Below, in pieces: positions 1 through 4,776 of a DNA stretch of 48,253 nucleotides (position 1 is the first letter of the stretch; each line of letters begins with the position of its first letter). The translations under genes and the position numbers were made by a program. Under the pieces are notes generated by a model. It was not told the origin of the DNA, ran no database searches, and saw only the letters and a program-made list of their open reading frames with translations. Source of the stretch: an uncultured Oscillospiraceae bacterium (GTDB taxonomy: Bacteria > Bacillota > Clostridia > Oscillospirales > Acutalibacteraceae); contig CAJMBP010000001.1 in the NCBI GenBank assembly GCA_905211675.1, positions 1 through 48,253 of the forward strand, read 5' to 3'.

Positions 1-1
1 T

Positions 2-2119
2 ATGTGCGTGGCAATGCTCATCGGCACCACCTTCGCGTGGTTCACCGACTCCGCAAGTACAGCGGTAAACAAGATTCAGGCCGGTACGCTTGATGTTCAG
101 TTACTTGACGAAAACGGCAACTCTCTTGAAGGGCAGACCCTTTCGTGGCAGAAAGCGGCAGGCGCTCCCGACGGTGAGCAGGTTCTTTGGGAGCCGGGCT
201 GTACCTATAAGCTTCAGCCTATTACAATCAAAAACGCAGGTAATCTTGCACTTAAATACAAGGTTGTCATAAGCGGAATCAAGGGCAGTGCAAAGCTTAA
301 CGAGGTTATTGACTGGACAATCTCAGGTGCCGACATCAACACCGAATATTCGTTAACCGCAGGGGCTTCCAACACCCTTACAATAGAGGGTCATATGCAG
401 GAAACCGCCGGCAACGAGTATCAGGGTCTTTCAATTGACGGCATAGGCATTACTGTTGTTGCTACTCAGCTTGCTTCTGAGTATGACAGCATTAACAACA
501 CCTATGATACAAACGCTACATACTTAAATCAAGACGCAGACGATAACTACCTCATAAGCAACGCAAACGAGCTTGTTTACTTTGCTAAGAGCGTTAATGT
601 TGAGGGCAACAACTACGCAGGTAAAACCGTTAAGCTTACTGCAAATATAGATCTTGCGGGCAAGAACTGGATTCCTGTGGGCCAGACCGGTGCTACCCAA
701 TTCCAAGGTATATTTGACGGTCAGAATTATACAATCAAAAATATGACTGTCAATTATACAGGCACTAGTTCTAATTACGCTTGTGGTCTGTTTGGCTGGC
801 TCGAACTTCATAACGGTTCTCCCATCGTTATCCAGAATGTCAAGTTTGAAAACGCCAATGTAACCGGCATTAAGTACACCGGCGTTGTGGCAGGTTATGC
901 AAACGGTGCATCCGGTGCCGAAATTAAGAATTGTGTAGTAACCAACTCCACAGTCACCTCCAACACCAAGAATGCCGGCGGTATCATTGGTTACATGGGT
1001 AGAGTCGTTTTGACCGGTAACACTGTTTCCGGTTGCACCATCTCTGCAAAATACGATGTCGGCGGTATTGCCAACTCTGTAGAACCTGGAGTAACTTTCC
1101 AGAATAACAAAGTTGAGAATACCAACATCTACTATGAAGAAGATCAGCAATATGATGCTGCAGGTATTTTCACCAGCGGTAAAGTTGTTTACAGAGACGA
1201 TAATACCAAGACCACCTTTGTTCCTGACAGCACCAACACCGCTATTAATTGCGAAGTCGGTCGCACAGTTTACGGTTTGGCCATCATTCCCAATGGTGAA
1301 AATTCCAAAATTATTGTTAACAGCAAAGAAGGCTTATTGAACCTGACCAAGCTGTTCAACGACTGGACCACACTGTTCACCGACGGTAATGGAAACGAAT
1401 ATAGCAACTATCACCACGGTGCCGGAGTAGATTACTATTACAGCAGCTACTGGACCATTAGTCTTGAAGCAGACATTGATCTCAACAACGCCACCATTGC
1501 TCCTATTGCCCTTAATTTCCCCACTTCCACCGGTCCAGTTAAGTTCGAGGGCAACGAAAAGAAGATTAGTAATGCAAAAATCGTAATGGATGCGAACACC
1601 CAAAATGATGCCGGTCTGTTCGATGCCAGGGCTGTGATTATGAAGAACTTGAAACTCGACAACATCCAAGTTACCGGAAGCAACATAGGTAACTCCACCG
1701 CAGGCATTTTGGCCGGTATTACAAGCCAGGATGTAACTAATATCACCGTCACCAACTCATCCGTTACAGGCGGTAAGTACACCGGTGGTGTTGTCGGCTA
1801 CGGTTATAACAGTGTTAAAAACTGCACTCTGACCAATGTTTCCGTTAAGGGCGGATATAAGCTTGGTGGTTTGATTGGTTACATTTGCGCAAGTAACGGT
1901 AATACCAGTAATGTTACCGGCAATACCCTTACAGATTGCACCGTTGACGGCATCGGCGGAGGCATCTTTGCCGGCGGAAAGAATGAGTATATTATTGGTA
2001 AGATCGTAGGTAACTACAACTGCAACGGCACTTGCAACGATAACACTCTTACCAACATGACCACCTCTGCTACCGCAAACATAGGTGAAATTGAGAGTGG
2101 CAAGACCGTTACTCAGTAA
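2..2119 (+). CDS. Secreted protein, 5' partial at window edge: TasA/camelysin-like N-terminal domain with SipW-cognate signal peptide, followed by two tandem GLUG-motif (beta-helix, adhesin-like) modules
   Basis: The N-terminus LIGTTFAWFTDSASTAVNKIQAGTLDV matches the SipW-dependent signal/TasA motif. WEPGCTY..ITIKNAGNLALKY..VVATQ is a TasA/peptidase-M73-like core. Two similar modules (about nt 545-1140 and 1310-2040) share the pattern DIDL..W.P.G..F.G.FDG.N..I with repeated GG(I/V/L)(I/V)GY GLUG-like turns. The ORF is uninterrupted. Confidence 0.75.
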   Translation: MCVAMLIGTTFAWFTDSASTAVNKIQAGTLDVQLLDENGNSLEGQTLSWQKAAGAPDGEQVLWEPGCTYKLQPITIKNAGNLALKYKVVISGIKGSAKLNEVIDWTISGADINTEYSLTAGASNTLTIEGHMQETAGNEYQGLSIDGIGITVVATQLASEYDSINNTYDTNATYLNQDADDNYLISNANELVYFAKSVNVEGNNYAGKTVKLTANIDLAGKNWIPVGQTGATQFQGIFDGQNYTIKNMTVNYTGTSSNYACGLFGWLELHNGSPIVIQNVKFENANVTGIKYTGVVAGYANGASGAEIKNCVVTNSTVTSNTKNAGGIIGYMGRVVLTGNTVSGCTISAKYDVGGIANSVEPGVTFQNNKVENTNIYYEEDQQYDAAGIFTSGKVVYRDDNTKTTFVPDSTNTAINCEVGRTVYGLAIIPNGENSKIIVNSKEGLLNLTKLFNDWTTLFTDGNGNEYSNYHHGAGVDYYYSSYWTISLEADIDLNNATIAPIALNFPTSTGPVKFEGNEKKISNAKIVMDANTQNDAGLFDARAVIMKNLKLDNIQVTGSNIGNSTAGILAGITSQDVTNITVTNSSVTGGKYTGGVVGYGYNSVKNCTLTNVSVKGGYKLGGLIGYICASNGNTSNVTGNTLTDCTVDGIGGGIFAGGKNEYIIGKIVGNYNCNGTCNDNTLTNMTTSATANIGEIESGKTVTQ

Positions 2120-2314
2120 CATTTTTGTTAACTCTATCCGTTTAGGATAACAAAGTCCCCCACCCTCTTTTTGGGGGTGGGCGGCAATCAAAGGGCATAA
2201 GCGTTTTGGCAAGCAACTAATAATGATCTCTCTATTATGTTTCTTTTTTACCGCAAGACGTTTGTGCTCTTTGATTGCCGAAAAGCAATAATTAAAAAAG
2301 GAGGAGTAATTTCT

Positions 2315-3046
2315 GTGAAAAAATCAAAAGGATGGATTAGAGATTGGTTCTATGTTCCAAAACACGAAAAAGTATCCGATAAATCCTTTTTGCAGATAAT
2401 GCTTTCCTCTGTGTTCGGTATTCTTATTTGCGGAATATTTCTTGCCGGAATTACATGGGCATGGTTTACAAGCAGTATTACAAGTCCCGCAAGCAATATC
2501 ACCTCTGCAAAATTTTCCGTACAAATAACATTCAAGCAAAATGAAGCGGATGTTGAGCCCGAAACAGATGAAAACGGCGACTATAAATTAAACGGCACAT
2601 ACACCGTTACCGTTACGGCGGACGGAAACGCAAGCACCGGCTTTTGCCGCGTAGAATTAAAGCTGCCCGATAACAGCAGCCTTACCTATCATACAATACA
2701 AATTTACCCTGCGGGAACCGACGGCAATCCGCAAAAAACAGAATTTACCGTAATCGCTTCCGAAGGTTATCGCCTTGCAATCATACCACAGTGGGGCACC
2801 TATGTAAAGTCGGATGACAGCGAAGCACTTATAGGTAATTCAAGCGGCGATATTAAAATTATTCCGAATTCATCATTAACTGTTTTAAATTCGGGTACCG
2901 AAGAATCACAGACATATAATCTGACAGAATCGGAACAAAGCTACACCGTACAGCAGGACGATACTCAGTCTTTGATTGCAGACCTCTACGGCACAACGGC
3001 AGATCCAACAGAGCCGTTAACCACTGAGGAAAACAAAAGCAACTGA
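2315..3046 (+). CDS. Small secreted/membrane-anchored protein with a second SipW-cognate (TasA-class) signal peptide; function unknown
   Basis: A GTG start at 2315 lies 8 nt after AAAGGAGGAG (2297-2306); the ORF-track start at 2237 has no RBS. A basic N-terminus and TM helix are followed by GITWAWFTSSITSPASNITSAKFSV, then a beta-rich about 170-aa domain. Confidence 0.7.
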   Translation: MKKSKGWIRDWFYVPKHEKVSDKSFLQIMLSSVFGILICGIFLAGITWAWFTSSITSPASNITSAKFSVQITFKQNEADVEPETDENGDYKLNGTYTVTVTADGNASTGFCRVELKLPDNSSLTYHTIQIYPAGTDGNPQKTEFTVIASEGYRLAIIPQWGTYVKSDDSEALIGNSSGDIKIIPNSSLTVLNSGTEESQTYNLTESEQSYTVQQDDTQSLIADLYGTTADPTEPLTTEENKSN

Positions 3047-3720: not shown

Positions 3721-4776
3721 ATGCAAGATATTGAAAAAATCGATAAAAACTTTAAGCTTGATACCGAGATTAAAAAAGACGATATTGTTTTTTATTCTGT
3801 TTTGGATTTGCCTTTTCGTGTTTACGGACTTATATACGAAAACAACAAATTCAGAAGAATGCCCGAAGACATTGCCAAAACGGTGAGTTACGGAGTACAT
3901 TGTCTGCACAGCAACACCTCGGGTGGCAGAGTGCGTTTTAAAACCGACAGCAAATATGTTGCAATTTCGGCAAAAATGTGCGGTATAGCAAAAATGGACC
4001 ATTTTGCGCTTACAGGCAGCGCAGGCTTTGACATATATGTAAACACAGACGGCGTCGATAAATTTAACGGTGCTTTTCGCCCGCCGTTCAACATTACCGA
4101 CGGTTACGAGTCGGTTTTCGATTTCGACTGCAAAAAAATGCGTGAAATAACAATAAATTTTCCGCTTTACAGTGATGTTTGCGAGCTTTATATCGGACTT
4201 CAAAAGGATGCCGCCGTAGAGGAAGCCAAACCGTATTCTTGCAGCAAACCCATAGTTTACTACGGCAGTTCAATAACACAGGGAGGCTGCGCGTCACGGC
4301 CCGGCAACGCATACCCTGCGATTGTTTCAAGACGGTTTGATACCGACTTTATAAATTTGGGCTTTTCGGGTTGCGGCTGCGGCGAACAGCAAATCGCCGA
4401 TTATATAGCAAGCCTTGATATGAAGATGTTTGTATTTGATTATGACCACAACGCTCCGAATGCCGAGCATTTGCAAAAAACCCATGAAAAATTCTTTAAA
4501 ACAGTGCGTGCCGCGAATCCCGATTTACCTATAATAATGATGAGCGCCGTAACATTGCCGCGTTTTTCAGACAACCGCGCAAAGCGCAGAGAGATTATTT
4601 ATAATACATACAAAAACGCAAAAGACAGCGGCGATAAAAATGTTTATTTTTTGGACGGCAGCAAAGAATTTGCGCCGTATGAAGACTTTGGAACGGTCGA
4701 AGGATGCCATCCTAACGACTTGGGATTTGCAGTCATGGCAAAATTATTAATCAATTTAATCGAGAAAATAATTTAA
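3721..4776 (+). CDS. SGNH/GDSL-family hydrolase (esterase) with an N-terminal beta-sandwich domain
   Basis: Block I is YYGSSITQGG (Ser nucleophile). Block V is CHPNDLGF (D-x-x-H-like). The 351-aa two-domain architecture is typical of carbohydrate-esterase-like SGNH proteins. Confidence 0.85.
   Translation: MQDIEKIDKNFKLDTEIKKDDIVFYSVLDLPFRVYGLIYENNKFRRMPEDIAKTVSYGVHCLHSNTSGGRVRFKTDSKYVAISAKMCGIAKMDHFALTGSAGFDIYVNTDGVDKFNGAFRPPFNITDGYESVFDFDCKKMREITINFPLYSDVCELYIGLQKDAAVEEAKPYSCSKPIVYYGSSITQGGCASRPGNAYPAIVSRRFDTDFINLGFSGCGCGEQQIADYIASLDMKMFVFDYDHNAPNAEHLQKTHEKFFKTVRAANPDLPIIMMSAVTLPRFSDNRAKRREIIYNTYKNAKDSGDKNVYFLDGSKEFAPYEDFGTVEGCHPNDLGFAVMAKLLINLIEKII

Follow-up and report, generated by a model that had tools for sequence, protein, structure and literature searches.

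A SipW-type gene cluster of gut Clostridia predicted to carry beta-helix proteins on a TasA-like surface fibre

What is known of TasA-type fibres comes chiefly from Bacillus, where they are biofilm scaffolds, with later examples from Clostridium perfringens and some archaea. The DNA studied here, a stretch of 48,253 nt from an uncultured Oscillospiraceae bacterium (hereafter the window; the first 48 kb of contig C1 in a metagenome-assembled genome of 1.55 Mb in 129 contigs), opens with two neighbouring genes that raise the question whether such fibres also serve gut Clostridia as carriers of large surface proteins. Both open reading frames, ORF1 and ORF2, encode a hydrophobic helix followed by AWFTD (ORF1) or AWFTS (ORF2). 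This feature, on which an original prediction made from the letters of the window alone was founded, is seen directly in the translations, and a six-frame scan of the 1.55-Mb genome found it only in ORF1, ORF2 and at the 3' end of contig C92. Our answer, which we hold to be fairly probable, is that a gene cluster shared by many gut Clostridia builds a TasA-type donor-strand-exchange fibre on a wall-anchored base, with one subunit bearing an adhesin-like payload; the first 3 kb of the window would be the distal end of such an eight-gene surface-fibre cluster. The features of the two genes are given below, with ORF1 residues numbered for the full-length protein and the evidence in brackets.

2-37, plus strand: 3' part of the SipW-type signal peptide of ORF1, the first 19 codons lying outside the contig (TIGR04088)
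38-91, plus strand: candidate donor strand of ORF1, WFTDSASTAVNKIQAGTL, residues 32-49 (conservation; position relative to TasA)
92-475, plus strand: TasA/camelysin-like beta-sandwich of ORF1, residues 50-177 (profile against PDB, Foldseek, hhalign)
476-526, plus strand: conserved linker of ORF1, ATQ-x3-E-x-DS-x4-YD, residues 178-194 (invariant residues)
527-1270, plus strand: beta-helix module A of ORF1, residues 195-442, of the GLUG / IgA1-protease N-terminal-domain type (AlphaFold2, profile, Foldseek)
1292-2119, plus strand: beta-helix module B of ORF1, residues 450-724, plus the stop codon (AlphaFold2, similarity to module A)
2157-2279, plus strand: tandem-hairpin intergenic RNA element, with hairpin HP1 at 2159-2181 and HP2 at 2182-2279 (fold z-score, covariance)
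2315-3046, plus strand: ORF2 (family O2), 243 amino acids (aa), GTG start (ribosome-binding site, gene calls, AlphaFold2)

ORF1 (nt 2-2119, plus strand) is open at its 5' end, where it is cut by the start of the contig. The full-length protein, P0001, is encoded on the human-gut metagenome contig L111, which also encodes ORF2; it has 724 aa, is identical by local alignment to the 705 aa of the window and adds 19 residues at the N-terminus. What looks like a start ATG at nt 2-4 lies inside ORF1, and L111 has Ile there. For ORF2 we dropped a start at ATG 2237 in favour of GTG 2315, which is preceded by the ribosome-binding site AAAGGAGG and gives the 243-aa protein that is called both in L111 and in L004, a contig of the European Nucleotide Archive (ENA) whose ORF1 product is 98% identical.

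Both proteins had been assigned to the SipW-cognate signal class, and for ORF1 the assignment stands: the truncated protein passes the model of that class, TIGR04088, with 26.4 bits against a cut-off of 19, and the counterpart on C92, whose N-terminus is complete, reaches 32.9 bits. The N-terminus of ORF1 presumably matches that of TasA residue by residue, and this underlies the predicted SipW cleavage after TTFA, between A31 and W32 of the full-length protein. The site is placed there because the donor strand of TasA begins at residue 28, directly past the signal that SipW removes (PMC9674648). In TasA, that strand (residues 28-38) completes the sheet of the next subunit (PMC9674648), and the candidate donor strand of ORF1 corresponds to it by position.

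The sequence behind this strand had been read as a TasA/M73-like beta-sandwich, and here the profile searches agree. When a signal-free profile of the mature domain (alignment A2) was compared with the PDB, B. subtilis TasA came out on top (5OF1, E 4e-4; 8AUR, E 8e-4) with AbpX in third place, and both motif blocks of ORF1 align to PGD..NNGSLAIK and NKYQG..ATQ of TasA. The AlphaFold2 (AF2) model of ORF1, with an overall predicted local distance difference test score (pLDDT) of 80, consists of an all-beta N-domain (80-90) and two beta-helices. In Foldseek, the N-domain retrieved archaeal AbpA (7ueg; probability 1.0, E 3.6e-3) and the pilins CfaB, CS17, PapG and Fim; TasA itself was missing from the top 50 fold hits, and we relied on the profile search against the PDB over the weak fold search with full-length ORF1. 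Peptidase_M73 (PF12389) gives 20.7 bits with the truncated protein, under the gathering score of 22.5, and 26.2 bits with full-length P0001, but there over profile positions 3-47 of 196 only.

In the donor-strand segment, the most conserved stretch of the family, W32, F33, G47 and L49 do not vary, and T34, D35, N42 and I44 hardly do. Across 88 payload proteins (the members of the family that, as ORF1, carry a further region behind the N-domain), the invariant positions of the signal and donor strand are G27, T29, A31, W32, F33, G47 and L49, and in the linker E179, D181, Y187 and D188 are invariant in 88 of 88. In the AF2 monomer, residues 24-46 have a pLDDT below 50 and are not docked onto their own domain, and the linker residues 178-191 likewise fall below 50. 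Two segments that are most conserved and yet unplaced in the monomer model would fit intermolecular contacts as in TasA fibres (PMC9674648), and the linker may be an inter-subunit interface, by analogy with the C-terminal segment of TasA, which is ordered only in the fibre (PMC9674648). BsaA of C. perfringens polymerises like TasA and locks the chain by an N-E-K isopeptide (PMC11580942). In ORF1, N42 of the donor strand, E83 of WEPG and K104 of LALKY, encoded at 128-130, 251-253 and 314-316 of the window, are at least 90% conserved both in 46 and in 88 family members, and they are candidates for an intermolecular isopeptide triad of the BsaA type; an alignment of BsaA-family proteins, fetched with TIGR04090, has a compatible N...EPG...K pattern, in which the residues are not securely equivalent to N35/E56/K74 of BsaA. 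The variable part of the N-domain lies at about residues 50-80. Between donor strand and WEPG, two variants coexist in the sample, LDVQLLDENGNSLEGQTLSWQKAAG and LDVALEMSTDGTNWETAEGKTLTFKTADNR (C92 4486-4722 against window 2-160), and both recur among database homologues, which points to a surface-exposed loop with old alleles or cassettes.

The remaining ~530 aa form the payload. Modules A (195-442) and B (450-724) are 29% identical (E 6e-11), fold as beta-helices in the AF2 model (rungs of module A at pLDDT 80-95, module B at ~90) and are swapped independently among homologues. They had been described as two similar GLUG-type modules; the similarity between them holds, and the GLUG label holds for the family rather than for this protein. 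Pfam Glug (PF07581) has no match in the ORF1 of the window at E<=1, whereas it matches 21 of 46 close homologues (best E 5e-8) and Peptidase_M26_N matches 4 of the 46, so that kinship to GLUG at family level is likely, judging from these relatives. The best PDB match of a module A profile (alignment A1) is the N-terminal beta-helix of the S. pneumoniae IgA1 protease (6XJA/6XJB/7JGJ; E 1e-3, positions 183-391), and Foldseek with the two helices gave weak matches to the putative IgA1 protease 3n6z, pectinases and tailspikes. A sorting signal or other anchor was looked for at the C-terminus of ORF1, and none was found. In relatives, payloads recognised by Pfam are almost all of beta-helix or solenoid types. 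On another contig of the genome (C25, 14470-18798, minus strand), a protein of ~1,440 aa combines a beta-helix stretch 27% identical to module A with a C-terminal SPNTGD signal; the payload type of ORF1 therefore also occurs directly sortase-anchored.

A dedicated SipW peptidase and the major subunit had been expected just upstream of the window. The 4.7-kb contig C92 carries, in this order, a Xer-like tyrosine recombinase, a 266-aa protein (S266), a 182-aa protein (T182), an 81-aa protein with four cysteines that is a possible zinc ribbon (Zn81), a signal peptidase, a 77-aa membrane protein (tm77) and the start of an AWFTD protein, of which the first 79 codons fill its 3' end. On L004, the same gene series leads directly into ORF1, ORF2 and the next genes of the window, and since L004 carries both as one stretch, C92 lies immediately upstream of the window; nucleotide identity between C92 and the syntenic contigs L004 and L005 is 98-99%. 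The terminal ORF of C92 is 88% identical to nt 1-96 of the window and then diverges into an N-domain variant known from P0054. It represents a strain allele or else a second paralogue that was not assembled, and in either case it accounts for the break in the assembly. Relative to L004 and L005, C92 (L086) also has a 235-nt insertion between tm77 and ORF1 (4186-4421). This insertion, possibly a small mobile element, includes the inverted repeat CTCCCTTGTGTAAAGGGAG / CTCCCTTTACACAAGGGAG.

The expected peptidase is indeed there: the 238-aa signal peptidase of C92 (2958-3710) matches TIGR02228, the archaeal/ER-type signal peptidase I model that includes SipW, with 69.3 bits against a cut-off of 51.85, and missed the Bacillus SipW equivalog model (72 bits against 190). 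In L004 and L005, its gene is the second one upstream of ORF1. Further TasA-class proteins were also found. T182 is homologous to the N-domain of ORF1 over the whole domain (hhalign 99.4%) and matches Peptidase_M73, and S266 is homologous to the whole N-domain as well (97.4%), with a low-complexity insert; the BsaA family model TIGR04090 was missed by T182 (17 bits against a cut-off of 60). The C-terminus of S266 reads NSPQTG followed by a transmembrane helix and KKRKK, and these three elements recur in its family as (S/P)PxTG, a helix and a basic tail. C. difficile SrtB recognises the motif (S/P)PxTG; two PF04203 sortase genes score above the cut-off in the genome, where other proteins carry SPNTG or SPITG signals. 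In most C. perfringens strains, a paralogue bearing LPXTG has been proposed as a wall anchor (PMC11580942). Elsewhere in the genome, contig C111 (L087, 155-2926) holds a second, different SipW-type locus. Its signal peptidase shares 28% identity with the first one, and it also encodes an exported protein of 230 aa whose leader is of the TFAKY type, a protein of ~290 aa bearing a SPITGD sorting signal and the beginning of a further signal peptidase.

ORF2 had been taken for a small TasA-class partner of ORF1, of which the shared signal and first strand stood and the TasA fold did not. Its layout is a basic N-region, a transmembrane helix (22-53) ending in TWAWFTS and a donor-strand-like segment; the family profile of ORF2 matches that of ORF1 over signal and first strand only (hhalign 97.6%, E 4e-12, 55 columns, residues 23-77). 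Behind this part, AF2 gives a confident compact beta-sandwich (67-160) with an invariant WG and then a disordered tail rich in Thr, Glu and Ser. A fold search with ORF2 against the PDB returned no significant match, only generic jelly-roll, TNF- or C1q-like sandwiches (best E 8e-3); TapA was absent from these fold hits, and no Pfam or NCBIfam model linked ORF2 to TapA. TapA carries the same strand as TasA and is presumed to provide the first one of the chain (PMC9674648). By analogy, ORF2 would be TapA-like in function only, with a donor-strand-like N-terminus and no acceptor domain. In several species (L042:13524-14519, L028:12992-14137; alignment A3), an in-frame ORF upstream of the ORF2-like gene contains a tm77-like stretch, which in these ORF2-family relatives is a transmembrane helix followed by YWRRELRC.YLCLIPF; tm77 may be fused to ORF2 there, or the gene starts may have been called too early.

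The cluster is not peculiar to this genome. At least 578 relatives of the ORF1 family occur in species-representative genomes, nearly all titled gut or rumen Clostridia, and the records include Faecalibacterium prausnitzii, Agathobacter, Butyrivibrio crossotus and cultured isolates; Yeguia hominis NSJ-40, Brotomerdimonas butyrica and Lentihominibacter faecis (loci L039, L043 and L044) are cultured carriers. In 77 fetched loci, the order S266 - T182 - (Zn81) - SipW - (tm77) - payload subunits - ORF2-like recurs, and it does so in both Oscillospirales and Lachnospirales; 25 of the 77 are complete and have 1-6 payload genes each. There is one anchor gene per cluster, and the ORF2-like gene is the last one in every case.

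The full order of the eight-gene cluster is the Xer-like recombinase with the candidate invertible promoter, S266, T182, Zn81, SipW, tm77, ORF1 and ORF2, and a mechanism may be proposed from it. The exported subunits would cross the membrane by Sec, and the dedicated SipW-type peptidase would cut just before WFT(D/S), at A31/W32 in ORF1 and A49/W50 in ORF2. This cleavage would free an N-terminal strand equivalent to the TasA donor strand, which would enter the TasA-like beta-sandwich of a neighbouring subunit by donor-strand exchange. S266, of TasA fold and with the (S/P)PxTG signal, would be fixed to peptidoglycan by sortase as the base, and T182 (the domain only) and ORF1 (the domain and two beta-helix modules) would be chain subunits. 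As ORF1 has no anchor of its own, it would be held and displayed through its N-domain, and its beta-helices of the GLUG/IgA1-protease type would be an adhesive or ligand-binding payload. ORF2 would give its strand to one end of the chain as an initiator or cap, like TapA, because it has the donor strand and lacks the acceptor domain. What the analysis observed are the homologies of the domains, the order of the genes and their conservation across species, the sorting signal, the peptidase and sortase genes and the structure of the RNA. We infer the cleavage site, the polymerisation, the order of subunits and the adhesin function, as we do the phase variation and the RNA function discussed below. 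Polymerisation by donor-strand exchange would be argued by analogy with the known fibres, as would any choice between a 'decorated fibre' and a 'tip adhesin', the two forms raised by the original prediction.

Regulation of the cluster may begin at its upstream end, where the following segment lies.

106-945 and 1002-1290 of C92 (L086), and 6671-7019 of L004: recombinase and inverted-repeat segment

Between the recombinase and S266, a perfect inverted repeat of 19-25 nt, ACATAAT-GTAT-ATTATGT, has an asymmetric centre that is inverted in the right-hand copy. The repeats flank ~260-300 bp containing a promoter-like site, TTTACT-17-TATAAT with TG ahead of the -10 hexamer, which points away from the operon (the OFF orientation). 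The same arrangement is found in genomes L009 and L024 and in the 98% strain L004, the related contig L005 ends exactly at the right-hand repeat, and other long repeats precede S266 in L026, L033, L077 and L082. Among the 31 S266-bearing related loci with enough upstream sequence, a recombinase adjoins the cluster in 3. Judging by the repeats and the enclosed site, expression of the cluster is probably switched by inversion of this promoter segment of ~260-300 bp.

A further element lies in the gap between ORF1 and ORF2 (2157-2279), which folds as a GC-rich hairpin abutting a long one (z-score -7.5); a second copy stands ahead of ORF1 on C92 (L086 4066-4179; z-score -6.8). HP1 (2159-2181) is GC-rich in its stem, where the copies differ by compensatory changes, and it forms in 50 of 50 distinct copies, which use 30 different stem sequences. 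In HP2 (2182-2279), the 19-bp stem is conserved in sequence, GGCAAUCAAAGGGCAUAAG...CUUGUGCCUUUUGAUUGCC, and the loop varies from 17 to 128 nt; its pairs in the 50 distinct copies include 134 G.U against 9 A.C, which points to an RNA of the sense strand. In 1.15 Mb of related loci, the 11-mer CAATCAAAGGG is found in 49 places on the operon strand and in a single one on the opposite strand, and copies of the hairpin lie nearly all just past a payload gene. A covariance model scores 57.7 bits on the sense strand and 33.2 on the antisense strand. Of 121 genomes of the order, 19 contain the element according to this model, frequently in clusters, and the sense strand scores higher in every case. 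An Rfam search of the intergenic element, riboswitches such as cyclic di-GMP ones included, gave nothing credible. The tandem hairpin is a candidate for a new RNA family tied to this type of operon. As to its function, we can offer a guess: segmental mRNA stabilisation or processing that sets the ratios of subunits, in which case the hairpin past each payload gene would probably set relative transcript levels. Two other ideas were dropped. There is no association with Zn81, CAATCAAAGGG being present in 11 of 14 clusters with Zn81 and in 7 of 11 without it. The hairpins as attC-like cassette recombination sites for the neighbouring recombinase were set aside as the leading reading, given that a recombinase is adjacent in only 3 of 31 loci and that its likely site, the ACATAAT-GTAT-ATTATGT repeat, is unrelated to the hairpin sequence.

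Several of our results weigh against the fibre. ORF2 has no match to TIGR04088 at E<=1 (nor at E<=0.01), so its earlier assignment to the SipW-cognate class fails on the formal model, though its family profile aligns with that of ORF1 at 97.6%; ORF2 is thus best described, on sequence grounds, as resembling the SipW-signal class without being a formal member of TIGR04088. Its long basic N-region could, moreover, keep it in the membrane as an anchor that is not cleaved. T182 and S266 depart from the AWFTD proteins in their leader and first strand. As regards the N-domain, the Peptidase_M73 match spans signal and first strand only, the scores of the fold search are weak (E 3e-3, template modelling (TM) score 0.4), and TasA is not among the top 50 Foldseek hits of the full-length ORF1 model. 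A payload of 55 kDa on a chain subunit may not fit TasA-like packing. The flipped right junction of the invertible segment was unmatched in metagenome contigs, in a scan that was powerless, since the unflipped control matched C92 only (ERZ780149 NODE_12335, coverage 3.5, which is C92 itself). Finally, cleavage, polymerisation and wall anchoring are all predictions from sequence.

The same genes can be read in other ways. It is unlikely, in our estimate, that they encode SipW-dependent secreted matrix proteins or enzymes that do not polymerise, in which the N-domain would be an export/folding or a wall- or matrix-binding module and ORF1 a beta-helix protein that is either free or held loosely, perhaps a lyase or hydrolase acting on glycans, much as BsaC is found beside BsaA. 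BsaC of C. perfringens is a large protein secreted as a monomer from a SipW operon, the fold hits of the beta-helices include polygalacturonases, capsule depolymerases, tailspikes and an alpha-1,3-glucanase, and Beta_helix, NosD and Pectate_lyase_5 match in payloads of relatives. However, the enzyme fold matches are all weak (E>=4e-6, TM<=0.17 on the query), and module A is closest in sequence to the N-terminal domain of IgA1 protease, which is not catalytic, together with GLUG. Moreover, a donor strand and linker that are strictly conserved across differing payloads are hard to square with a mere export tag, and equally hard to square with it are the two partners that always accompany them, one of TasA fold and wall-anchored, the other with the strand only. 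The conserved strand might instead be a plug: a single anchor gene faces 1-6 interchangeable payload genes with near-identical donor strands, so that each payload could insert its strand into S266 (or T182-S266) one to one, as dockerin does into cohesin and with no growth of a chain, while ORF2, which bears the same strand, would compete for or regulate the same socket. We judge this quite improbable, since the payloads keep a full acceptor domain with the groove motifs WEPG, NxGNLALKY, GNEYQG and ATQ, which a pure plug would not need, and since a protein consisting of the domain only, such as T182, is typical of a shaft.

The name of the matching Pfam family, Peptidase_M73 or camelysin, might also suggest that the N-domain is an active metalloprotease of the camelysin type (M73) and ORF1 a surface protease. 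We reject this as having next to no probability: the Pfam match does not reach beyond signal and first strand, no HExxH or other metal-binding motif was seen by eye (no formal motif search was made), and the assignment of CalY as a protease is itself a probable misidentification (PMC11580942). The donor-strand-exchange fibre thus remains the reading that we prefer. Its most elaborate form, which is possible and put forward here tentatively, is a phase-variable 'plug-and-polymerise' display, in which interchangeable beta-helix cassettes of gut Clostridia would share a TasA-type polymerisation domain and be threaded through donor-strand exchange onto a sortase-anchored base, with a strand-only cap closing the chain and a tandem-hairpin RNA, not described before, after each cassette. 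With the same reserve, this display might include an N42-E83-K104 lock, and its RNA might set stoichiometry or provide a conserved 3' flank for the exchange of cassettes.

The locus suggests that the TasA assembly principle is widely used as a carrier of large, variable, adhesin-like payloads. If so, the fibre would be a main surface appendage of dominant commensals of the human gut and would explain how giant surface proteins with no anchor of their own are retained. The cleavage site, the donor strand, the N-E-K candidates, the sortase anchor and the invertible promoter all offer handles for experiments.

We found no paper describing this cluster in gut Clostridia; the general idea is already contained in a 2025 preprint on TasA/BsaA operons with anchors, sortases and several paralogues, for which donor-strand heteropolymers were proposed (PMC11580942). 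Of the known systems, tapA-sipW-tasA of B. subtilis shares with the cluster a dedicated SipW-type peptidase within the operon, a jelly-roll subunit with the motifs PG..N.G.LA.K and N.YQG..ATQ, an N-terminal strand right behind the cleavage site, where TasA has its donor strand, and an accessory protein (TapA or ORF2) that shares the strand and not the subunit fold. In contrast to it, the cluster fuses a beta-helix payload of ~530 aa to the subunit domain, in 1-6 payload genes per cluster, and adds a separate TasA-fold protein with a sortase signal; ORF2 has no detectable homology to TapA beyond the strand, and regulation appears to lie with a candidate invertible promoter, in place of SinR in B. 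subtilis. The sipW-bsaA-bsaB-bsaC operon of C. perfringens with the adjacent srtB (PMC7395162; PMC11580942) is likewise a SipW operon of Clostridia with several TasA-like paralogues, an anchor paralogue and a large accessory protein with an interaction domain, and BsaA tolerated a C-terminal FAST fusion, its oligomers being seen anchored on the cell surface (PMC11580942). The von Willebrand factor type A (vWA) payload of BsaC, however, has not been described as fused to a TasA-like domain, the N-E-K isopeptide locks BsaA whereas N42/E83/K104 are mere candidates, and here the sorting motif is (S/P)PxTG and TIGR04090 is not reached.

Among archaea, AbpA of Pyrobaculum calidifontis (7UEG; PMC9245690) is a TasA homologue with donor-strand complementation and a fold hit of the ORF1 N-domain, and AbpB is a proposed donor of the first strand with distal adhesin-like domains, as in FimH (PMC9245690), which follows the logic of an adhesin that brings its own strand. 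That system differs in being archaeal, its locus includes neither a dedicated SipW nor a sortase anchor, and AbpB, the adhesin proposed there, bears the strand without a complete TasA domain joined to a beta-helix. The streptococcal IgA1 proteases, finally, have an N-terminal domain (Peptidase_M26_N, Glug; 6XJA, 7JGJ; B. ovatus 3N6Z) that is a right-handed beta-helix like module A and whose function is not established even there; the M26 catalytic domain of these enzymes is absent from ORF1. Taken as a whole, the cluster would work in the manner of tapA-sipW-tasA and sipW-bsaABC and falls within their broad family, from which it departs in its exchangeable beta-helix fusions to a TasA-type domain, a separate sortase-anchored base of TasA fold, a strand-only partner that is not TapA, a candidate invertible promoter and an RNA element.

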